A stretch of 64,000 bases of DNA from a phage. The notes under the pieces were generated by a model. The model ran no database searches. It was not told where the DNA came from and saw only the letters and a list, made by a program, of their open reading frames with translations. This document shows positions 10,230 through 59,705 of this stretch, in pieces (positions within the stretch are counted from its first letter, which is position 1; the number at the start of each line of letters is the position of its first letter). The stretch lies in sequence record PZ445450.1; one strand, 5' to 3'. Both the position numbers and the translations under genes were made by a program.

Positions 10230-10478
10230 GATATTTCACCGGACCAGATATTTTAAAATTCTTAGAAAATCAGAAAATGGATCGAAAACTAAAATGGATT
10301 TTTCAGAGTAGGCGCGACAAGCTGAATCGCTCATCCTATCGTTTGCACCATATTCTAGACCACCATTACAGATTTCCCGCACATGCTCACATCCTTCTAC
10401 TAGAACTTCCTCCACTTACCCTTGACTTTTTATGGTAATAGTCTAACCACTATCTTGAGGTTGCGGTACAGCTTTCCG

Positions 10479-10640
10479 GGTACTCGATCTGTTTTTCGTT
10501 TCAAAGATTGAATTTTCTGAAAATTTTTCTCGATAAATTTCTCAGTACTCGATCTGTTTTTCGTTTTCTGAATCGGATTTTCTGGAAATCGTTCCGGAGC
10601 TCGACCTGAAATTTTTGGGGACGAAATCGATTTTTCGTTT
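10479..10640. repeat. AT-rich tandem direct repeats
   Basis: gtactcgatctgtttttcgttt occurs identically at 10479 and 10548; flanking gattttctg(a/g)aaat and aaatggat(t) motifs recur 3-4 times between 10200 and 10680. Confidence 0.6.
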
Positions 10641-10772
10641 TCAGAAATGGATTTTTAAAATTTCTATATGGGAATATTTTATAGGATACTGTTTTATAGG
10701 AAATTGTTACGGAGGGTAATTAGCATGCTAATTAAATTTATTAAATGCGAGGAGTTCTCATTTAGAATTTTG

Positions 10773-11404: not shown

Positions 11405-11602
11405 ATGAACGCATACGGGATCAAAGTACGTTGCAACACTCGCCAGGTGGTCACCAATCAAGTGATTTGCCGGGTGGATGTAACCATCAACAACGGGCAA
11501 GGCCTTTATAAATTTCGTCGCGGTCATAGCTATACCCTGCAACAGCTTAATCGTTGCGCCCTGACAAAAGGTCAGATCAACCACTGGTTTAATAAAAAAT
11601 AA
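11405..11602 (+). CDS. hypothetical protein
   Basis: aagagga RBS before internal ATG; the longer track ORF overlaps the promoter. Confidence 0.5.
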   Translation: MNAYGIKVRCNTRQVVTNQVICRVDVTINNGQGLYKFRRGHSYTLQQLNRCALTKGQINHWFNKK

Positions 11603-11605
11603 ATA

Positions 11606-11634
11606 TTGACATGTAGTCTGAAACAAAATATACT
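11606..11634 (+). promoter_or_regulatory. sigma70 promoter (TTGACA-N17-TATACT)
   Basis: -35 11606-11611, -10 11629-11634. Confidence 0.6.
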
Positions 11635-11666
11635 GAAAGCACAAAAGACACTAAGAGGATAAAATC

Positions 11667-12065
11667 ATGAAAACCACAACCTTTAATTTTGACAATGCTG
11701 ACTTCTCTTTTTCTGATGTTAAAAGCTGCCGCCGTGATCGCGGATTCTACAAGGCCTATAATCTGGTTGGCCTGGACGATGATAATAATTTGCACGAAGT
11801 AGCGGAGATCCGGTACTATGCCGCCGCCAGCGGTAACACTCACTACTGTGTATTTTGGATTCACGACAACAAGAACAATAAGTACGGTTATACTGGCGGC
11901 AAGGCGAGCGGTCACGGTTATGATAAAGCCAACGCTGCACTTGAAAGCGCATTAAGTGCCATGGGAATCACTGCCGACGGCTGGATCTATGAAGAAGAGT
12001 TTTTGGCGGCACTTGCTAACCACCTGGGCTATAAAAAGCACATTGTAACATGTGCCCACGAATAA
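11667..12065 (+). CDS. hypothetical protein
   Basis: aagaggataaaa RBS; 132-aa ORF. Confidence 0.55.
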   Translation: MKTTTFNFDNADFSFSDVKSCRRDRGFYKAYNLVGLDDDNNLHEVAEIRYYAAASGNTHYCVFWIHDNKNNKYGYTGGKASGHGYDKANAALESALSAMGITADGWIYEEEFLAALANHLGYKKHIVTCAHE

Positions 12066-12073
12066 AAAAATTA

Positions 12074-12102
12074 TTGACACGCTGCAAAATTCAAGTAAAC
12101 TA
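12074..12102 (+). promoter_or_regulatory. sigma70-like promoter (TTGACA, -10 TAAACT)
   Basis: -35 12074-12079; followed by 5' hairpin ggcggga-atgt-ttcccgcc at 12112-12130. Confidence 0.5.
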
Positions 12103-12149
12103 TACACAAAAGGCGGGAATGTTTCCCGCCAACACAAAGGAAAAAGATC

Positions 12150-12545
12150 ATGAATAAGAACGTACGCCGCATCATGAACGAACTGGCAAACGATGAAAAA
12201 ATTATTGACATGCATTTAGTCAACATTTGCCGCCGTTGTGTAACATATAACAACCGCGCCGCAAAAGCGCGTGAGATGAACGCAAAAGGCACCTTAAAGC
12301 CTTTTCAGGTGGTTGTAAAATCTATAACTAATGCAGCAGGCCAGGCGCATGACCACAACAACGAGAGCACTAATATTGATCCGTCTTACGTAATGAAACG
12401 GATCCGGACTTGCAAGAATAAAGAGCAGGTGTATAACGTCATAGATTGGCTGGACTCCCTGGGCGATGTGGTTTACAATAGGTTTTCTGCAGCCATCGAG
12501 ATCCAGCTTGACAGATTGGACGGGAAAGTACTAAAAACTTATTGA
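12150..12545 (+). CDS. hypothetical protein
   Basis: Leader caacacaaaggaaaaag then ATG; 131-aa ORF. Confidence 0.55.
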   Translation: MNKNVRRIMNELANDEKIIDMHLVNICRRCVTYNNRAAKAREMNAKGTLKPFQVVVKSITNAAGQAHDHNNESTNIDPSYVMKRIRTCKNKEQVYNVIDWLDSLGDVVYNRFSAAIEIQLDRLDGKVLKTY

Positions 12546-12547
12546 GT

Positions 12548-12591
12548 TTATTTTTAGATGGCCTTGACTCCAGGGCCATCAATAAAGTAAA
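12548..12591 (+). repeat. 44-nt intergenic element, copy 1 of 3 identical
   Basis: ttatttttagatggccttgactccagggccatcaataaagtaaa; hairpin GATGGCC/GGCCATC with TTGACT in the loop; begins 3 nt after the stop codon. Confidence 0.8.
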
Positions 12592-12625
12592 CTAACCACA
12601 ATTAAGCGGAAAAGGAGGCTTAAAG

Positions 12626-12745
12626 ATGAGCACTACACGCCAGCACACAAAGGTAACTATTATCGTTTGCATCATTGGTTACATCCTGGCGCAAATGTTG
12701 ATGGGTAGCGCCAACGGTGTAGCAAAATTTTTCTTAAACTTTTAA
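12626..12745 (+). CDS. small hydrophobic peptide (39 aa)
   Basis: aaaaggaggc RBS; sequence VTIIVCIIGYILAQMLMG. Confidence 0.4.
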   Translation: MSTTRQHTKVTIIVCIIGYILAQMLMGSANGVAKFFLNF

Positions 12746-12773
12746 TTGACAAGCTAACTTAGATCAGTATACT
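12746..12773 (+). promoter_or_regulatory. sigma70 promoter (TTGACA-N16-TATACT)
   Basis: -35 12746-12751, -10 12768-12773; 5' hairpin gggaa-aac-ttccc follows. Confidence 0.6.
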
Positions 12774-12824
12774 AAGCACATAGACGGGAAAACTTCCCCA
12801 GACACACGAAAGGAGAAAAACACC

Positions 12825-13166
12825 ATGACTACTATGACCGCCGAAGAAAAAGCCCTGCAGATCGCCGCTCTGAAAAAACAGATCGCAGACCTTGAGAATA
12901 AGATCGATAACTTTGAAATCGACGAGGACAAGTACGACGAAAACTATGATGAATGGCTAGACGAGGTTTATGGCGAAATTATGATCGGAAACATTTCTTT
13001 TCTTCCGTCGCGTATCCTCAAGGAGTTAGATCCTATCGCTTACCGCTGCGGATTTAGCGACTACATCGACAGCCTGGATATTGAGGACGATGAAGAATAC
13101 CGGGAATTACAGACAGAGTTGGAAGAAGCAAAAGAAGAGCTTGCGGAGCTGGAAGAAAACGAGTAA
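12825..13166 (+). CDS. hypothetical acidic coiled-coil protein
   Basis: aaaggagaaaaa RBS; very acidic 113-aa protein. Confidence 0.55.
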   Translation: MTTMTAEEKALQIAALKKQIADLENKIDNFEIDEDKYDENYDEWLDEVYGEIMIGNISFLPSRILKELDPIAYRCGFSDYIDSLDIEDDEEYRELQTELEEAKEELAELEENE

Positions 13167-13168
13167 GA

Positions 13169-13212
13169 TTATTTTTAGATGGCCTTGACTCCAGGGCCAT
13201 CAATAAAGTAAA
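13169..13212 (+). repeat. 44-nt intergenic element, copy 2 of 3 identical
   Basis: Identical 44-mer to 12548..12591; begins 3 nt after the stop codon. Confidence 0.8.
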
Positions 13213-13255
13213 CTTTATACTGTTAACACTGAACTAATGCATAGGAGTTAAAACC

Positions 13256-13501
13256 ATGGCAGCACTAATCACTAAATATTACGCCCCTACCAACACCAAA
13301 AGCGCCCGTATCATGGTAAAAGGCTTCGGACGTAAAAAGGTTTACACCTGGGATTATGCCTTAGACACGGAAGACAACTACACCAACGCGATGACAGATT
13401 TTATTAATGAGCTGAACACGCGGATCTTGACAAATTATAAAATTACCGATATTGCCTATATAGGGGAAGGCGGGATCTGTTTTGTCGGTATCGTCAAATA
13501 A
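13256..13501 (+). CDS. hypothetical protein
   Basis: aggag RBS; 81-aa ORF. Confidence 0.5.
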   Translation: MAALITKYYAPTNTKSARIMVKGFGRKKVYTWDYALDTEDNYTNAMTDFINELNTRILTNYKITDIAYIGEGGICFVGIVK

Positions 13502-13577
13502 ACTGTTTTTTCGGTGGTCCTGGTAGCAGGGCCATCTATAAAGATAGTTTATCAATACAATGAAAGGAGAAAGTAAC

Positions 13578-13925
13578 ATGATCAGTGGGGCAAGTTTTAT
13601 TATTGGCGCTATTGCTACGGCTTTAATTGTAAACAAGATCCAATCTAAAAACGAAAAAGAGAGCAACGCGCTCACAGAATACCCATTTTGGATATTCAAC
13701 GACAATGAAGACTACATTATCAAGTACAAGAATGAGAAGGGCGACCAGGTAACACCGCGACCGATCCCGGCCTACAAGATGCAAGAAACACTATACCGCC
13801 TAAAGGCTGGAGGCGCAAAAATCGTAGACTTTTGGGGATATGATTGCAAGGATCAGGAGGTTATAAAACGGCGTATCCGGGCTATTCAGGCCAATATTGA
13901 AGTTAGCAAGGGGGGGAATATATGA
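13578..13925 (+). CDS. hypothetical membrane-anchored protein
   Basis: aaaggagaaag RBS before second ATG; N-terminal helix ISGASFIIGAIATALIV. Confidence 0.5.
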   Translation: MISGASFIIGAIATALIVNKIQSKNEKESNALTEYPFWIFNDNEDYIIKYKNEKGDQVTPRPIPAYKMQETLYRLKAGGAKIVDFWGYDCKDQEVIKRRIRAIQANIEVSKGGNI

Positions 13926-14119
13926 AGATTAATTTTGAGAAGATTGTAAAGCGATCTCATGTTTCCGAAGAGCTGCCGGAACGACGCCAGCGTAACAATA
14001 AACTGAATAAGCCAAAAAGATTTGGAAAGATCTGGCGAAATCATTATGATCGTAAATTGCCTGGCCTACTTTTGGAACGTGAACGACAGGCAGAACGATA
14101 CCGCCATAAAGACAAATAA
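13922..14119 (+). CDS. hypothetical basic protein
   Basis: ATGA overlap; Arg/Lys-rich 65-aa ORF. Confidence 0.45.
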   Translation: MKINFEKIVKRSHVSEELPERRQRNNKLNKPKRFGKIWRNHYDRKLPGLLLERERQAERYRHKDK

Positions 14120-14127
14120 CAACCAAC

Positions 14128-14153
14128 GCCCCGCCATTGTGCGGGGCTTTTTA
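14128..14153 (+). terminator. rho-independent terminator
   Basis: gccccgc-cattgt-gcggggc then ttttta. Confidence 0.7.
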
Positions 14154-14300
14154 TTTCTATCCTACGAATAGCGCCCCTGGTTGGCCCTGTAAGCGCCAAA
14201 AAGGCCCCACCTATGCAATCGCCCCCCTTTAACCTGAAAACATCGCTTAGGGCCGTTTTATGGCGTTAAAAATATCATTGACAGTGATTTTATTTAAAGC

Positions 14301-14328
14301 TTGACATCTTAAACAGGTTAGCTATACT
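14301..14328 (+). promoter_or_regulatory. sigma70 promoter (TTGACA-N16-TATACT)
   Basis: -35 14301-14306, -10 14323-14328. Confidence 0.6.
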
Positions 14329-14360
14329 AACCACATCAAAGAGAGAAAGGAGTAAACGCC

Positions 14361-14621
14361 ATGCGTAAATTAAAAAATTTTGATAAAGTTGATGTTGTCC
14401 TGAATAATTTTTACTACTGCAACAACAAGGCCATTTGGTGGCGTGATAGTTCCACCGATAAAGTCAAGGCGCGCTTTCTCCAGGGGCACTGGCAAGGCCG
14501 CCCAGTGATTAAAATCATGGGGCAATTGGTAGCGTTTAAAAATTGCCGCCGTGTTGATGACGTTGAGGAGATTTTAAACATTTTGCGCCACAATAATTTA
14601 AAAAATAGTGTTGACAAGTAA
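14361..14621 (+). CDS. hypothetical protein
   Basis: aaggag RBS; 86-aa ORF. Confidence 0.5.
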   Translation: MRKLKNFDKVDVVLNNFYYCNNKAIWWRDSSTDKVKARFLQGHWQGRPVIKIMGQLVAFKNCRRVDDVEEILNILRHNNLKNSVDK

Positions 14622-14638
14622 ATCTCAATAAGTATAAT
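14611..14638 (+). promoter_or_regulatory. consensus sigma70 promoter (TTGACA-N16-TATAAT)
   Basis: -35 14611-14616, -10 14633-14638; 5' hairpin ggcgg-gaaaactta-ccgcc at 14649-14667. Confidence 0.65.
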
Positions 14639-14695
14639 TAAACACACAGGCGGGAAAACTTACCGCCACTAACAAAGAAAACAGGAGAAAATATC

Positions 14696-15319
14696 ATGAC
14701 CACCGTTAACATTACCACAGGTTACAATTTATCTTTCGACGTGCTGACCGACGAACAAAAAGAAAAAGCCATTGAAATGGTACGCGAAAGAGAAGAACAC
14801 AGCGGGGATGACTTTTTTGCAGAAAGTGTAATTGAACACTACAAAGAATATATCTTTCCAGAGTACGGCCTTGAAGATACCGAAGTACATTGGTCCGGCT
14901 TTTGGTGCCAGGGTGACGGCGCGTCAATCAGTGCTGAAAACGTGGATTTAGAAAAATTTTTGCGTAAAGTAAAGGCCCTGACCAAGTTCCGATCAATTCG
15001 TCACTTGTTCGGCACAATGCACGATGGCGAGTTATCAGCCAGTGTTGAACGCGACAAGTACAGCCATTACAGCCATGAAAACACTGTAAGCGGATACATT
15101 GATACCACCTGGCTAGATCTGACCGCCAAACAAGAAAACAAAGTGGAAGACCTGGAAGAGCTGATCACCGAGACGGTACGGGAGCTATCCCGCAAGGTTT
15201 ACGTAGACCTGGAGGAGGCCTATCTAGAACAGTTCACTACCGAAAACCTGATCGGCCTTATTGAGGCCAATGATTGGCGGTTTGATGTGGATGAATATGG
15301 AGAGATGAGTTTTTCATAA
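14696..15319 (+). CDS. hypothetical acidic protein (207 aa)
   Basis: Leader ctaacaaagaaaacaggagaaaat then ATG; largest protein of the cassette array. Confidence 0.55.
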   Translation: MTTVNITTGYNLSFDVLTDEQKEKAIEMVREREEHSGDDFFAESVIEHYKEYIFPEYGLEDTEVHWSGFWCQGDGASISAENVDLEKFLRKVKALTKFRSIRHLFGTMHDGELSASVERDKYSHYSHENTVSGYIDTTWLDLTAKQENKVEDLEELITETVRELSRKVYVDLEEAYLEQFTTENLIGLIEANDWRFDVDEYGEMSFS

Positions 15320-15327
15320 ATAAAGTG

Positions 15328-15355
15328 TTGCAATAATCTAAAAACCTGCTATATT
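15328..15355 (+). promoter_or_regulatory. sigma70-like promoter (TTGCAA-N16-TATATT)
   Basis: 5' hairpin ggggcaa-gacg-tttgcccc at 15365-15384 follows. Confidence 0.5.
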
Positions 15356-15408
15356 AAAACTCAAGGGGGCAAGACGTTTGCCCCACACAAAACAAAGAGG
15401 AAAACATT

Positions 15409-15789
15409 ATGAAAAACACTACTAAAGCTATTGACACCGTTATGTTTAACCTGGTTACCTTTCGCGAGGATATGAAAGATCTTCCACGTGAAACAGTGTG
15501 CGATCACATTGAAAACTATCGCAAACTAATCAAAGAGTTGCCTTTAAAACGTGACCAGTATGCGGCTAACGCTATGCTCAACGCCATGATCAAAAAGATG
15601 ATTCAGTGTGATTTAACCCTGGCCTATGATTATGCAGGTGGTCGTTTTGCAGTATACAATCAGCCCGTGCCTGGTATGGGCACCACTGAAGAATTGCACG
15701 CGCTCAATCTAAAACAAGACGTGTGGGATAGTATGCCCCGCGTGGTGGTGTGGGCAGAAAGCGGAAAGATTTACGGCGATAATTTTTAA
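15409..15789 (+). CDS. hypothetical protein
   Basis: cacaaaacaaagaggaaaac leader; 126-aa ORF. Confidence 0.55.
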   Translation: MKNTTKAIDTVMFNLVTFREDMKDLPRETVCDHIENYRKLIKELPLKRDQYAANAMLNAMIKKMIQCDLTLAYDYAGGRFAVYNQPVPGMGTTEELHALNLKQDVWDSMPRVVVWAESGKIYGDNF

Positions 15790-15853
15790 TCAGGTAACAG
15801 GCGGCATATTTGCCGCCTTATTGTTAAACAGAACTGCAAAAGAGGTACATAGA

Positions 15854-16225
15854 ATGGAATTTATTATTTTGGCCGTATTAGTTGCCTTGTTTAACGCCTG
15901 GATCGCTGGCAAGATGGGTAGATCCGCCTTTTTATGGTTTATTATATCTATTTTCCTGGGGGTGGTTGCAACTATTGTACTTGTTATCCTTGCAATTGTT
16001 GACAAAGGCGATAATAGAAAGGGTAAAGTATTTTCCGACCTGTATGACGCGCAAACATTTGTCAACGCCTATTATAGTGATCTTCCAGTCTCCCTACGCT
16101 GCAGCCTTGCACAACAGGTTTTCGATGAAGCTAAAACCAGAGATCACGCCCATGAGATTTGTTTAACTGAGGCGGATCGCCTATTTGAGAGGAATAGAAA
16201 ATATGTGGGCCAGCCGTTTAAATAA
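15854..16225 (+). CDS. hypothetical membrane protein (2 predicted TM helices)
   Basis: aaagaggtac RBS before internal ATG; IILAVLVALFNAWIAG and FLWFIISIFLGVVATIVLVILAIV. Confidence 0.5.
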   Translation: MEFIILAVLVALFNAWIAGKMGRSAFLWFIISIFLGVVATIVLVILAIVDKGDNRKGKVFSDLYDAQTFVNAYYSDLPVSLRCSLAQQVFDEAKTRDHAHEICLTEADRLFERNRKYVGQPFK

Positions 16226-16448
16226 TACCACGTTAATTAATCCCTTTGATGAAGATTTGAAGCCAGCCGCCTGGCGTGATGGATTCAATAACGAACGCTT
16301 TATTTTCAGGCCTGATCTTAAGGAATTTTATAACAATGGATCGAACAACGACAGAGATAATTTTTCTTGTGATGTGCGTGGTGATGGTACTCCTGGGGGC
16401 CATTGTAAACCACGTCACTACTACCAGGATGAAAGGGGGAGACGATGA
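16203..16448 (+). CDS. hypothetical protein
   Basis: gagagg RBS; its stop forms an ATGA overlap with the next ORF, supporting this frame. Confidence 0.4.
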   Translation: MWASRLNNTTLINPFDEDLKPAAWRDGFNNERFIFRPDLKEFYNNGSNNDRDNFSCDVRGDGTPGGHCKPRHYYQDERGRR

Positions 16449-16564
16449 CAACCAAGGATAAGCCCCGCACCGATAAGGTGCGCCGGGTTATGGTATGGCT
16501 TGAGATCATCGCCCTTGAAATATTGTTAGGCGTAGGGATGTATTTTATCGCTGTAAGTAACTGA
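16445..16564 (+). CDS. small membrane peptide (39 aa)
   Basis: aagggggagacg RBS; WLEIIALEILLGVGMYFIAV. Confidence 0.4.
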   Translation: MTTKDKPRTDKVRRVMVWLEIIALEILLGVGMYFIAVSN

Positions 16565-16568
16565 TAAC

Positions 16569-16598
16569 GGCCCCCGATCCCTGGGGGCCTAACTTTTT
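16569..16598 (+). terminator. rho-independent terminator
   Basis: ggccccc-gatccct-gggggcc followed by taacttttt. Confidence 0.65.
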
Positions 16599-16621
16599 CA
16601 AAAAATTTTTCTTCCGGGGTG

Positions 16622-16650
16622 TTGCAATCCGGTCCGAAATATGGATAATA
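16622..16650 (+). promoter_or_regulatory. sigma70-like promoter (TTGCAA-N17-ATAATA)
   Basis: Followed by 5' hairpin gggga-gctaa-tcccc at 16663-16677. Confidence 0.5.
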
Positions 16651-16708
16651 ATAATAATCAACGGGGAGCTAATCCCCACCAACACAAAAACCAGAAAGGA
16701 GAAACAAA

Positions 16709-16909
16709 ATGAGCAACAATATCCGCGTTATTAACTTCAAAAAAGAAGAAAAAATTGCCGTGCTGATTGACGGTCAAGAAATCTTCAAGGGCGACTATGA
16801 AGATCATCAAACGGCGATTAGTATCACTCGCGTGATTGGTTACCATAATTTTTACCCCCAAGGCGCTGAGGCAGCTGTTAAACGAATCAAAGAGATTGTA
16901 GGCCTGTAA
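16709..16909 (+). CDS. hypothetical protein
   Basis: Leader ccaacacaaaaaccagaaaggagaaac then ATG. Confidence 0.55.
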   Translation: MSNNIRVINFKKEEKIAVLIDGQEIFKGDYEDHQTAISITRVIGYHNFYPQGAEAAVKRIKEIVGL

Positions 16910-16912
16910 AAT

Positions 16913-16956
16913 TTATTTTTAGATGGCCTTGACTCCAGGGCCATCAATAAAGTAAA
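16913..16956 (+). repeat. 44-nt intergenic element, copy 3 of 3 identical
   Basis: Identical 44-mer to copies at 12548 and 13169; begins 4 nt after the stop codon. Confidence 0.8.
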
Positions 16957-16993
16957 TTTAAACCCTGTTAAAATACCACGCAGTTAACAAGGA

Positions 16994-17302
16994 GTGATAG
17001 ACATGTTTATCCAGGCTAATAATCTTTATTTCTTTGATGGTCAGATCGTAGACGGCGTGGAAGTAGAGATCACCGGGTGCCCTGGCGGTCAGGTTATGAC
17101 TTTTCGGAATAATGCCTTTGATGATTCTCATATCGTTATGAGAATGGAAGTTAGTAAGCTGGACGATAAGAAAACACTCATTGATTATTCCGTGAAAGAT
17201 CATCCAGACTACCACATGATCTATGGCGATTTGTGCATTGTTGACCGTGACAAGGTGAACGGCATTGTGATCGCTATTGTGAACGATGTTTTCTCAAACT
17301 AG
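16994..17302 (+). CDS. hypothetical protein
   Basis: aacaaggagtgatagac RBS. Confidence 0.55.
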   Translation: MIDMFIQANNLYFFDGQIVDGVEVEITGCPGGQVMTFRNNAFDDSHIVMRMEVSKLDDKKTLIDYSVKDHPDYHMIYGDLCIVDRDKVNGIVIAIVNDVFSN

Positions 17303-17319
17303 TTTCAGCAGGTTATTTT

Positions 17320-17670
17320 ATGAAAGTAAAACTATATTACCTTAATGAGCTTAACCCCCTTGCCCAGGTCCGCGCCCTGGCTAATACCTTGATTTGTGAG
17401 AAATCTGTATATTGTGTTGAGATTAACGCCATGCGTGAACGTCTCAAAGGTGGTTACTTTGACATCCATGCTGCAATCAACGGCCTGAATATGGAATTTA
17501 TCCGCTTACGTAACAGCCGCCAGAGTCTGGCAAGAATGGAACAAGATCCGGCCCACCTTCGTAAGCTGGTTATTGAAAACCATCTGATGTTCAATGCCGA
17601 TGGCGATTATTACCATTTTCACCGTAAACGCTGGTACCGTAGCGGCAATATAGGAAATAATGCAAAATAA
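17320..17670 (+). CDS. hypothetical protein
   Basis: 116-aa ORF; weak RBS. Confidence 0.45.
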   Translation: MKVKLYYLNELNPLAQVRALANTLICEKSVYCVEINAMRERLKGGYFDIHAAINGLNMEFIRLRNSRQSLARMEQDPAHLRKLVIENHLMFNADGDYYHFHRKRWYRSGNIGNNAK

Positions 17671-17707
17671 GGCCCCCGGCAGGGCCTACAGCGATATAAT
17701 CATCTAA

Positions 17708-17739
17708 AGGCTATGCAACCGCATGGCCTTTATTATTTT
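17708..17739 (+). terminator. rho-independent terminator
   Basis: aggctatgc-aacc-gcatggcct then ttattatttt. Confidence 0.6.
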
Positions 17740-17871
17740 GGCGTTACAGCGGCCCCAAGGCGCTTAAAAATTTTTTTAAAGAAGTGCTTGCATCAAGTCC
17801 TACAATATGGATAATAGGACGTGTCAGGGGGCGGCCCCCAATCATTAACCGGATAGATAGGAGTTAAAACT

Positions 17872-18156
17872 ATGGCTATTGTTACCGTTGGCGATGTAGT
17901 AGAAATGGAAGCCAAATACTTAAAAGCGGGTATGCATATCCTACGCAACGATCTTGAGCTAGTCCTGACAATGGTCGACTATAATCCCGGCCAGGATTAT
18001 CCAAGCATCGACTACTTTTTTGAGTATGTTGATGAAGAGCTAAAAGAAGACGAAGCCTATTGCGGTGAATTTTGCAACTTCTTTTGCCCTGATGAGGTTG
18101 TAAAAGTTATCTATCAACCTGGCGTACCTTTCCCGTTGCACGCCATCAATAAATAA
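17872..18156 (+). CDS. hypothetical acidic protein
   Basis: Promoter-like TTGCAT with 5' hairpin ggggg-cgg-ccccc at 17827-17839; aggag RBS. Confidence 0.5.
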   Translation: MAIVTVGDVVEMEAKYLKAGMHILRNDLELVLTMVDYNPGQDYPSIDYFFEYVDEELKEDEAYCGEFCNFFCPDEVVKVIYQPGVPFPLHAINK

Positions 18157-20239: not shown

Positions 20240-20268
20240 TTGACACCTGCCAGGCGGTGGGGTAACAT
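20240..20268 (+). promoter_or_regulatory. sigma70-like promoter (TTGACA-N17-TAACAT)
   Basis: -35 20240-20245, -10 20263-20268. Confidence 0.5.
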
Positions 20269-21196: not shown

Positions 21197-21262
21197 TACA
21201 ACAGGTTGCATGGTCAGGGGCGATAAAGCCCCTTGATCACATAAAAATTATGCTATCCCTTG

Positions 21263-21291
21263 TTGACAGGGATCGGCAGTTTTGCTATATT
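21263..21291 (+). promoter_or_regulatory. sigma70 promoter (TTGACA-N17-TATATT)
   Basis: -35 21263-21268, -10 21286-21291. Confidence 0.55.
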
Positions 21292-21780: not shown

Positions 21781-21806
21781 GGGGCTTAAAGGCCCCTTTC
21801 TTTTTG
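21781..21806 (+). terminator. rho-independent terminator
   Basis: ggggc-ttaaag-gcccc followed by tttctttttg. Confidence 0.7.
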
Positions 21807-22421
21807 TCTGCTCTTCTCCTACCATAAACGGCCCTACCTGGCAAGTGGAATAATTGACTAGCCATCAATCCCACATACTGTACAAATATACATGGAAAAT
21901 AACTATTGCATAATCTTTCATTGTGCGGTAGCAGGGCCATTTTTACCCGTTTTCTCTCCCAAAAGTGCACGTAATGCCGCTATTGCACAAATTTTAACCT
22001 GATGCACATATCCAATATCTTGTCAACAACTAAAAATCTTTATAAGTCATACACTTATACAGCATCGAAAGCGTGTTCTACGTGAAAAATCGAGTATAAC
22101 TATAGCCGCCAGATCTCAGAATTCACGTACGCACGCCATTCTATAGCCTGCAAAGTATTTATTCCAACCACAGAATAACGGAATAGTCAATACCTGCATA
22201 AAATAATTATTCGTGTAAACTGCATAACATAAATCAGCTCAGGTGTCAACATTTTTCGTAAACAGTCCGAAATTATCACGATGAGTTATCATAAACAGAG
22301 AAATCTTTAGTCGTCTAATGTTTACTGTACATTACTATACTGACTGGAATCATTAGATGACTAAGAAAAAGATAAGAAATAATTAATAATGTAATTGTTT
22401 TATCTGTAACAATAAGGCAAC

Positions 22422-22700
22422 CATGCAAACGAATGTCATGGCGCGACGGAGTCGCGACATAATATAAAAGCAGTAACCATCACCCCCGTGATAGTTTGTC
22501 TGCAATCTATTATTCAGATCATAGTTGCCTTGTATTTAGTTAATCATGACATAACAAGCAAGGCAACTATAGCTCTGATAATAGTTGCCCTGCTTTTATA
22601 TTATGTCATAGATTGTTAGCTTGTTAACTGTCAGCCTGTTGGCTGTTAGCTTGTCAATTATTAAATTGCTAATCTTTATCATGCAAACGAATGTCATGGC
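22422..22700. repeat. Composite repeat locus: 21-bp direct repeats flanking nested inverted repeats
   Basis: catgcaaacgaatgtcatggc at 22422-22442 and 22680-22700; 18-bp inverted repeat gacataatataaaagcag (22456-22473) / ctgcttttatattatgtc (22580-22597); inner palindromes cgcgac/gtcgcg and atagttgccttg/caaggcaactat. Confidence 0.8.
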
Positions 22701-26241: not shown

Positions 26242-26493
26242 TTAACGTTCTACAAAAATACCATTCAGTTCAATAACCAGGAATTTCTGGTCTTCACTAT
26301 CGTCTCGTGCCAGTACCTCACAGACGTATCGGTCATCCCCATCATCATCGCAGTCAAATACAAGACTGAGGACTTTATCATGGTAAACCTTCGCCACTAC
26401 CGCCTCGTAAGTATTGCCGATTGTGAATCCAAGATAATCTCCGATGCATTTGACAACAACATGGTCTCCAGCATTTAAGTCAATCTTTGTCAT
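26242..26493 (-). CDS. hypothetical protein
   Basis: aaggagcgcag RBS before internal ATG of track ORF 26242..26559. Confidence 0.5.
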   Translation of the reverse strand: MTKIDLNAGDHVVVKCIGDYLGFTIGNTYEAVVAKVYHDKVLSLVFDCDDDGDDRYVCEVLARDDSEDQKFLVIELNGIFVER

Positions 26494-26648
26494 TACTGCG
26501 CTCCTTGGGTAATAATACTGTATGTAAAACTTTAACCAGAGATGTGAATAACGCCCCAAAACACACCGATAGCACTAAAACAGACAAGGCCATCATTAAA
26601 GCTTCAGTAAAATCAGTCACTCCTCACCTCTTGTTAGTCACTATACTG

Positions 26649-26912
26649 TCATTTATCCTTGCCGTCAAGAACTTTTTTAAATCTTTCAGGGATATCTCCT
26701 GTTCTTAGATAGTTCATGACCTCGCAAGGTTCCCACTTGAATTTCTTACAGAGCAGGACGGCTGAGATTGTTTCATTGCGAAAAGAAAGGATATTAATAT
26801 CCCACTCTGAGAACCCCAACTTCCGAAGGGTAGCTATAGAAATCCTCACCGCAACCCAGCAGCAAAAACATGCAACAAACGCCACTGCTACAACCCACAT
26901 CAGGATGTTCAT
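26649..26912 (-). CDS. hypothetical membrane protein
   Basis: N-terminal helix ILMWVVAVAFVACFCCWVAV. Confidence 0.45.
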   Translation of the reverse strand: MNILMWVVAVAFVACFCCWVAVRISIATLRKLGFSEWDINILSFRNETISAVLLCKKFKWEPCEVMNYLRTGDIPERFKKVLDGKDK

Positions 26913-59546: not shown

Positions 59547-59620
59547 ACCAGTAAAAACTTAAATATCTGTACTATAAGGATTCGTATGTTTTATGTCCAC
59601 CCCAGAGCAGAGGATAGTAA

Positions 59621-59705
59621 CTGTCCGTGATACGGACACTACTGTCCGTCACGCGGACACATCTGTCCGTAATACGGACACTAACTGTCCGTGATACGGA
59701 CACAT
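59621..59705. repeat. Four tandem palindromic iterons CTGTCCGT-N4-CGGACAC
   Basis: Units at 59621, 59642, 59663 and 59686 at 21-23 bp spacing; each contains inverted half-sites GTCCGT/ACGGAC. Confidence 0.85.

Follow-up and report, generated by a model that had tools for sequence, protein, structure and literature searches.

The 64,000-nucleotide stretch of phage DNA analysed here (record PZ445450.1, hereafter the window) represents, judging from its sequence, the early region of a Vequintavirus (rV5-like) phage of E. coli; positions 11500-18000 are 94-97% identical to more than 100 Vequintavirus genomes. Four of its small early genes are each followed, directly at the stop codon, by one copy of a short repeat, which is a real and conserved regulatory element. 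As + strand RNA this element folds into a hairpin that is under selection, and three of the four copies also carry a promoter-like motif. We incline, on balance, to read it as a punctuation mark of composite nature that separates the small early genes of Vequintavirus phages from each other. The element sits within a block of small + strand early genes that is punctuated by strong sigma-70-type promoters and ordinary terminators. All seven flanking proteins (7/7) matched only PHROGs of unknown function, and no Pfam family was obtained above the cut-off.

The 44-mer TTATTTTTAGATGGCCTTGACTCCAGGGCCATCAATAAAGTAAA occurs exactly, on the + strand, at 12548-12591, 13169-13212 and 16913-16956, as had been reported in an earlier note made from the sequence alone. 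Allowing up to 3 mismatches gave no further matches, and none was obtained in 100 shuffles. The offsets from the upstream stop codons, which end at 12545, 13166 and 16909, are 3, 3 and 4 nt, in agreement with the placement given in that note. Similarity among the copies extends beyond the 44-mer and covers 49 nt. Two degenerate relatives had also been proposed. One of them, at 13514-13543, belongs to a genuine, diverged fourth copy (13501-13549) with 65% identity to copy 1 and the same fold. The other, at 21927-21940, did not hold as a structural copy: it is only an exact 14-mer, GGTAGCAGGGCCAT, which lacks a 5' arm or pairing partner, folds differently and is not matched by the family model, and it is treated as a fragment or a coincidence. 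When a covariance model of the family was run over the 64 kb, the four copies were the only ones found (74-83 bits; 31-40 bits on the minus strand), with none elsewhere in the window.

The four hairpins lie on the + strand. That of copy 1 spans 12545-12593 (82.9 bits), with a lower stem that starts on the final base of the stop codon, TGA, of the gene at 12150-12545, and that of copy 2 spans 13166-13214 (80.6 bits), directly following the stop codon of the gene at 12825-13166. Copy 3, the diverged one, consists of the hairpin only (13498-13552, 74.1 bits, no promoter-like site listed), and its stem includes the TAA stop codon of the gene at 13256-13501. Copy 4 spans 16909-16959 (80.7 bits) and begins on the final base of the stop codon, TAA, of the gene at 16709-16909.

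In the + strand RNA each copy forms a bipartite hairpin of ~20-23 bp that starts at the upstream stop codon. The upper stem is G/C-rich and consists of 10 bp (GAUGGCCUUG/CAGGGCCAUC) with one U·G pair and a tetraloop cap. After a 2x3 internal loop there follows an A/U-rich lower stem of 10-13 bp, in which the 5' T-run pairs with the 3' AAAGUAAAY segment and which reaches into the flanking sequences. The upper stem of copy 3 is GGUGGUCCUG/CAGGGCCAUC, with two G·U pairs, the loop GUAG and no TTGAC -35, and the lower stem of copy 4 has an A-U pair where copy 1 has G-C. The features described earlier (GATGGCC/GGCCATC arms with TTGACT between them, a T-run on the 5' side, and TTGACT-N18-TAAACT/TAAATT) are all present. 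The 7-bp stem of that description is real, but it is merely the top of a ~23-bp hairpin that is specific to the RNA of one strand. Folding energies were -25.1 kcal/mol for copy 1 (z -7.2), -21.5 for copy 2 (z -5.1), -28.2 for copy 3 (z -8.1, the best of the four) and -23.6 for copy 4 (z -5.8). Those of the minus strand ranged from -12.7 (copy 3) to -17.2 kcal/mol (copy 1). With a G+C content of only 32-39%, the elements still rank among the most stable folds of 62 nt in the whole 64 kb, and an Rfam scan of the region 10-24 kb returned no relevant family.

Like Rho-independent terminators, the element places a G/C-rich hairpin directly after a stop codon. It differs from them in that the T-run precedes the stem and the segment that follows the stem is A-rich. 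The upper stem is followed by AAUAAAGUAAA, and the full hairpins by AACCACA, UAUACUG, CAAUACA and AAACCCU. No U-tract was found 3' of the hairpin, and a scan with the terminator consensus gave no match at the element, which supports the earlier opinion that this is not a standard terminator.

Selection on the pairing was analysed using the sites from 15 related sequences, namely 8 phage records, 2 IMG/VR contigs (3 retrieved stretches) and 4 metagenome contigs; the most divergent relative, L053, shows ~85% identity. All 28 distinct variants (28/28) adopt the same fold, with -20 to -32 kcal/mol on the + strand, and the + strand fold was better than that of the minus strand in every variant as well as in all four copies of the window. 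In an alignment of 24 sequences, 92% of the cells are able to pair, against 36-54% when the partners are slid by 1-3 columns. The upper stem is paired in 100% of the cells, with four pairs switching between G·U and Watson-Crick, and five pairs of the lower stem change on both sides (for example G-C/A-U/G·U, U-A/C-G and A-U/U-A). Among the non-Watson-Crick cells there are 62 G·U and 4 A·C, and hence the pairing works only in the + strand RNA. At orthologous sites in 9-12 genomes the substitutions are confined to the tetraloop and the internal loop, whereas the adjacent downstream untranslated sequence varies freely. In copy 1 of L053 a 1-nt insertion in the loop, a larger internal loop and altered lower-stem pairs still leave a fold of -25.9 kcal/mol. 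The hairpin is under selection at the RNA level.

Copies 1, 2 and 4 also contain the motif TTGAC(T/A)-N18-TAAAYT, with the -35 hexamer in the apical loop and the -10 hexamer in the 3' strand of the lower stem. In the window it reads TTGACT-18-TAAACT/TAAATT, a 9/12 match. The hexamers lie at 12564-12569 (TTGACT) and 12588-12593 (TAAACT) in copy 1, at 13185-13190 and 13209-13214 in copy 2, and at 16929-16934 and 16953-16958 (TAAATT) in copy 4. Within the canonical copies TTGAC is the same throughout, in contrast to the two loop bases after it (T/A/G and C/T), and a perfect TTGACA is found at this -35 in several genomes. The sequence AAGTAAAYT is likewise the -10 region of accepted early promoters, namely P194 of rV5 and early promoters of phage W70, and the bases following the -10 of copy 1 match those of the strong promoter at 14301 (family D6). 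All canonical copies carry TTATTTTTA 7 nt upstream of the -35, and the distance from the -10 to the next start codon, 33-46 nt, was judged appropriate. The promoter proposed in the earlier note is plausible, as one of the sigma-70 type, for the three identical copies. We conclude that the family shares the hairpin as its primary feature and that a promoter is probably a second function of three of its copies. Neither a promoter nor a terminator is given at the sites of the element in the rV5 genome paper. Two other candidates were discarded: a minus-strand promoter or terminator, of which inspection and scanning revealed none, and a micro-ORF of 10 codons (ATGGCC...AAGTAA), which has no Shine-Dalgarno (SD) sequence, is absent in copy 3 and is frameshifted in copy 1 of L053.

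Copies 1 and 2 bound a dispensable cassette of 621 bp (12594-13214, + strand). It comprises a membrane open reading frame (ORF) of 39 aa (12626-12745), a strong promoter (12746-12773), an acidic ORF of 113 aa (12825-13166) and one element. Phage ECP32 and one IMG/VR contig (L013) precisely lack this cassette. In its place each retains a single hybrid element, flanked on the left as copy 1 is and on the right as copy 2 is; where within the repeat the crossover fell cannot be fixed exactly. In ECP32, where BLAST finds two copies, the gene upstream of copy 1 is followed by the element and then by the gene downstream of copy 2. The cassette is present in L053, and deletion by homologous exchange between direct repeats is therefore the simplest explanation. 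This comparison of genomes shows gene cassettes evidently deleted by homologous recombination between the near-identical direct repeats, in line with the cassette variants with breakpoints at the element that had been anticipated. A divergence profile in 40-nt bins revealed no mosaic boundaries at elements beyond the ECP32 deletion. The 113-aa protein is strongly acidic with coiled-coil-like ends and matches only PHROGs of unknown function; the loss of its gene in ECP32 indicates that it is non-essential.

BLAST searches found the element only in Vequintavirus records, typically in three places per genome and with 96-100% identity. The presence in relatives that had been looked for was thus confirmed: the copies hold fixed orthologous positions in essentially all of the ~120 vequintavirus records. 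This argues against the suggestion that exact identity of the copies is a sign of recent spread, and such identity is particular to the genome of the window, since in other vequintaviruses the copies differ from each other at unpaired positions. The loop variants ACC and TTC recur in more than one paralogue, and in 5 of 10 genomes copies 1 and 2 agree with each other. This is suggestive of gene conversion among the copies, but it is not significant once variant frequencies and genome relatedness are taken into account. The element is absent from 5,426 E. coli genomes and, with no similar sequence there, it is not a mimic of a host element. Pattern scans of IMG/VR and metagenomes gave mostly chance matches and a few vequintavirus contigs. 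Seventeen records labelled 'Campylobacter phage' (e.g. MG065658 and MG065661) are ~96% identical to positions 11500-18000 of the window and contain the element; their host labels look doubtful.

The family model found no match in Escherichia phage W70 (OP778610), which belongs to the sister genus Septuagintavirus. A tblastn search with one flanking protein indicated that these early genes are not common to other genera of the Vequintavirinae, and for this reason orthologous intergenic regions cannot be compared between genera. W70 has, nevertheless, elements of its own at positions 26493-26568 and 26786-26861 of its sequence (L169), which are direct repeats flanking one small gene. Like the element described here, they start at the stop codon. 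Their upper stem of 11-12 bp bears TTGAC at its apex and is joined through a small internal loop to an A/U lower stem of ~11-13 bp, and a -10 (CATAAT) lies on the 3' side. Unlike the element of the window, they have an unrelated sequence, an apical loop of 8 nt and a spacer of 17 bp. The two W70 copies differ from each other by compensatory changes, and one of them folds equally well on both strands. The searched parts of the W70 paper contain no description of these elements.

The arrangement resembles the promoter-early stem-loops (PeSLs) of the T4-like phages RB49/phi1, PST/T4 and nt-1/KVP40 (Arbiol et al. 2010, PMC2839356; Comeau et al. 2014, PMC4122927). A PeSL combines an A/T-rich stretch, a sigma-70 promoter and a superimposed stem-loop between a stop codon and the Shine-Dalgarno sequence; PeSLs lie among genes of unknown function, and the breakpoints of insertions and deletions fall in the motif (PMC2839356). 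All of these sequence-level features were found here, and the element is best read, as far as its sequence tells, as a variant of the PeSL kind. There is an A/T-rich stretch upstream of the -35, and a stem-loop without a U-tract lies over the promoter. The sigma-70-type hexamers are present in copies 1, 2 and 4 and absent in copy 3. The element stands between a stop codon and the downstream SD/ATG, among small genes of unknown function, and related phages gain or lose the gene(s) between two motifs, leaving one chimeric motif. For direct comparison four RB49 intergenic regions were folded. Three of them (3/4) have TTGACA, a 7-8-bp GGGGAUC hairpin that fills the spacer, and TATACT/TATAAT, while the fourth has no stem-loop; none shows a U-tract after the stem-loop. 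The differences are also clear. The RB49 promoters are consensus ones (TTGACA-17-TATACT/TATAAT) and the match of the present element is weaker; their hairpin (GGGGAUC...GAUCCCC, 7-8 bp) occupies the spacer only, whereas here a bipartite hairpin of 20-23 bp is centred on the -35. Moreover, the UP-element region of the present element pairs with the -10 region and so encloses the whole promoter, and the pairing is demonstrably selected at the RNA level. Only four copies exist, one of them without a promoter, they belong to the Vequintavirinae and not to the Straboviridae, and there is no sequence relationship to PeSLs. No other description of the element was found in the literature searched, and a PeSL-like element appears not to have been described before for the rV5-like phage group.

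A second comparison was made with intercistronic sites of phage T7, the sequences of which were read from NC_001604 at what we take to be R0.3, R0.5, R1, R1.1 and R1.3, the RNase III sites of Dunn and Studier 1983. These also form a family of similar hairpins between early genes, just after the stop codons, with a 10-bp G/C-containing upper stem including G·U pairs, an apical loop of 3-5 nt, an A/U-rich segment on the 3' side that is unpaired or weakly paired, and no U-tract. In contrast to the element, no promoter lies inside the T7 hairpins in such an arrangement, and the lower stem found here is longer and more regular than in the minimum free energy (MFE) folds of the T7 sites. RNase III accommodates ~22 bp, and within transcripts its sites in vivo fall preferentially in intergenic regions (PMC6212723). 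With stems of 10 bp and 10-13 bp on either side of a 2x3 internal loop, the element lies on the coding strand within early operons, and the RNase III processing suggested in the earlier note would fit the size of the real hairpin. We regard this likeness as a functional analogy, in which cleavage is predicted here, short of demonstrated membership of the T7 group. A literature search found nothing that links RNase III to rV5-like phages.

Taken together, the punctuation-mark reading could work as follows. RNA polymerase coming from a strong upstream promoter would read through the element, and the RNA would fold into the ~20-23-bp hairpin. This hairpin would mark the end of the upstream cistron post-transcriptionally, as a substrate of the host RNase III and/or as a barrier to 3' exonucleases. 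Most likely, we infer, it is a target of RNase III cleavage and/or a shield for the 3' end of the upstream message; in its length and interrupted helix it matches the T7 intercistronic RNase III sites. In this way the hairpin might uncouple the fate of the upstream message from that of the downstream one. The DNA of three of the four copies would act, in addition, as a moderate sigma-70 promoter, with the T-rich 5' strand of the lower stem in the position of an UP element; this promoter presumably fires and would start transcription anew 26-39 nt before the next start codon. Recombination between direct-repeat copies, for its part, removes whole gene cassettes. A more specific form of the proposal, a 'cut-and-restart' mark, is put forward only tentatively. 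According to it a sigma-70 promoter is palindromic from the UP-element region to the -10 and its read-through RNA is a ~23-bp hairpin of the RNase III type, so that the old transcript would be cut exactly at the new start and each small early gene would become an autonomous, portable cassette. Equally tentative, as part of the same proposal, is that the design and not the sequence is conserved between genera of the Vequintavirinae, as the W70 elements suggest.

Several points weigh against the punctuation-mark reading. The covariation in the stems comprises few independent events, mostly differences of copy 3 from the other copies. Side by side, the element and the T7 RNase III sites have no similarity beyond the GGCC core, and no transcript or transcriptome data for rV5-like phages were found in the literature searched. 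As for the promoter, the match is weak by itself, with a spacer of 18 bp and no TG extension, and it is not significant, sites of 9/12 quality numbering 61 against 37 expected from shuffles. Copy 3 has neither a -35 nor a promoter. In copy 1 of L053 the hexamer spacing becomes 20 or 15 bp and the downstream gene is retained, which means that a promoter function is dispensable at least there. Finally, the -10 lies in the stem, so that its conservation could be purely structural. Some of these observations favour another explanation, in which the element is a hairpin only. It would act as an RNase III site or 3' stabiliser and so signal RNA processing or stability, and the hexamers would be a by-product of a G/C stem with A/T arms. 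Such an explanation accounts for the copy 3 hairpin retained without any -35, for the L053 fold retained while the spacing shifts, for 9/12 matches being frequent by chance and for the constraint on -10 bases that are paired anyway. It does not account for the invariant TTGAC beside varying loop bases, for the TTGACA variants, for the use of AAGTAAAYT as the -10 in other early promoters, or for the layout of the unrelated W70 elements, in which the -35 again lies at the apex and the -10 on the 3' side. We consider it possible, although rather doubtful. The combination of promoter and attenuator, in which the hairpin would halt read-through RNA polymerase or let less of it pass, an effect proposed for PeSL stem-loops, seems to us unlikely. 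It draws support from the PeSL stem-loop that cut the expression of downstream lacZ as strongly as rrnB T1 (Arbiol et al., PMC2839356), from the RB49 PeSL stem-loops, which likewise have no U-tract, and from the position right after the stop codon, the usual place of a terminator. However, there is no U-tract after the upper stem or after the full hairpin, and by the established rules of intrinsic termination in E. coli inefficient termination is therefore to be expected. Canonical T-run terminators are present in the same region (14128, 15799, 16569 and 17705), a selected A/U lower stem of 10-13 bp is needless for termination, and the genes without a promoter of their own (after copy 3 and after copy 1 of L053) must be read through.

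One of the two remaining alternatives places the function at the DNA level. An inverted repeat centred on the -35 might be an operator bound by a repressor of the phage or the host. It might also extrude as a cruciform, which would switch the promoter or be cleaved by a junction-resolving enzyme. Perfect 7-bp palindromic arms do overlap the -35 in the three canonical copies, the flanks are A/T-rich and recombination occurs at the element. Yet copy 3 has no DNA palindrome (GGTGGTCC / GGGCCATC) and is nonetheless fully paired as RNA, which disfavours the factor-binding site of the earlier note as a palindrome in the DNA. The excess of G·U over A·C (62:4) denotes selection on one strand only, and the minus-strand folds are much weaker (-12.7 against -28.2 in copy 3). 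The lower stems differ among copies of one genome and still pair, which argues against the recognition of fixed half-sites, and symmetric half-sites conserved in all copies, as in a palindromic operator, were not found. Such a DNA-level function is consequently held to be very improbable. Even less credible is that the element is selfish or mobile DNA, that is, a repeat similar to REP or MITE sequences or a recently spread target of a homing endonuclease, despite its near-identical, hairpin-forming, intergenic copies directly after stop codons. The copies occupy the same orthologous positions in essentially all vequintavirus records, including the one of ~85% identity, and none is found elsewhere in the window, in E. 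coli genomes or in the sister genus. No endonuclease gene is adjacent, the flanking ORFs have no assigned function, and nothing was found in support of the homing-endonuclease site proposed earlier.

The punctuation-mark reading places the element downstream of other promoters of the block, each of which precedes the single gene before a copy on the + strand. The gene before copy 1 is driven by a strong sigma-70-type early promoter at 12074-12101 (TTGACA-16-TAAACT), which is P194 in Table S4 of rV5 and shares the -10 region AAGTAAACT with the element. The strong early promoter at 12746-12773 (TTGACA-16-TATACT; P192 in the same Table S4) drives the gene before copy 2. Before the gene of copy 4 there is a weaker promoter-like site, TTGCAA-16-GATAAT, at 16622-16649, after the terminator at 16569-16589. 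The strong early promoters have a short G/C hairpin at ~+5 of the predicted transcript (GGCGGGAATGTTTCCCGCC; GGGGAGCTAATCCCC), as at 12112-12130, 16664-16678 and similar sites (families D3 and D6), followed by a CA-rich leader and then a Shine-Dalgarno sequence. In the HdK5 record such hairpins are annotated as terminators, yet the coding strand has no T-run after them; their appearance is that of 5'-terminal stabiliser hairpins. Two other early promoters are associated with hairpins. The promoter at 21263 has its -35 enclosed by the hairpin ATCCCT-TGTTGAC-AGGGAT (21253-21271), and the same promoter in rV5, P164 (ATCCTTG-GTTGA-CAAGGAT), shows a compensatory change of C-G to T-A. At 20240-20268 the early promoter at 20240 has a hairpin in its spacer, as in the RB49 PeSLs. 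Just 3' of copy 4, the untranslated stretch 16961-17000 occurs among vequintaviruses as two sharply different alleles, with 13 differences in a 40-nt bin and conserved sequence on both sides.

Other repeats were observed in the window. Upstream of the early gene block, at 10473-10668, there are three tandem units of 57 nt, 61-100% identical and spaced by 65 and 74 nt, which are rich in TTTTTCGTTT and GATTTTCTG; a comparable array is found in W70 (L169:23135-23313). A gene-poor region at ~21800-22700, probably the 'non-coding' box of the rV5 map, contains an exact 21-nt repeat, CATGCAAACGAATGTCATGGC, at 22422 and 22680, a long inverted repeat at 22520-22610 (fold of -30.5 kcal/mol) and the 14-mer at 21927. 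Three copies of a ~28-nt unit with the palindrome GTCCGTNATACGGAC lie at 59612-59703 and together form the most stable local folds of the window, on both strands, with ~-35 kcal/mol.

Phages of the rV5-like group are widely used in phage therapy and biocontrol, and we know of nothing that has been established about the expression of their ~100 small early genes. Those who annotate such genomes are alerted to a feature that present-day programs for finding promoters and terminators overlook or label wrongly. If the 'cut-and-restart' proposal is true, the modular shuffling of the PeSL type would extend beyond the T4-like phages, and the stem-loop would gain a defined post-transcriptional mechanism. 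If the design of a promoter folded into a processing hairpin holds in several genera, the PeSL idea of portable regulatory cassettes would become more general than the T4-like phages, and the reduced downstream expression caused by stem-loops that have no U-tract would be explained. The element itself offers a concrete, testable handle on the punctuation of early operons, on a possible host factor (RNase III) and on the loss and exchange of accessory cassettes in the Vequintavirus phages.

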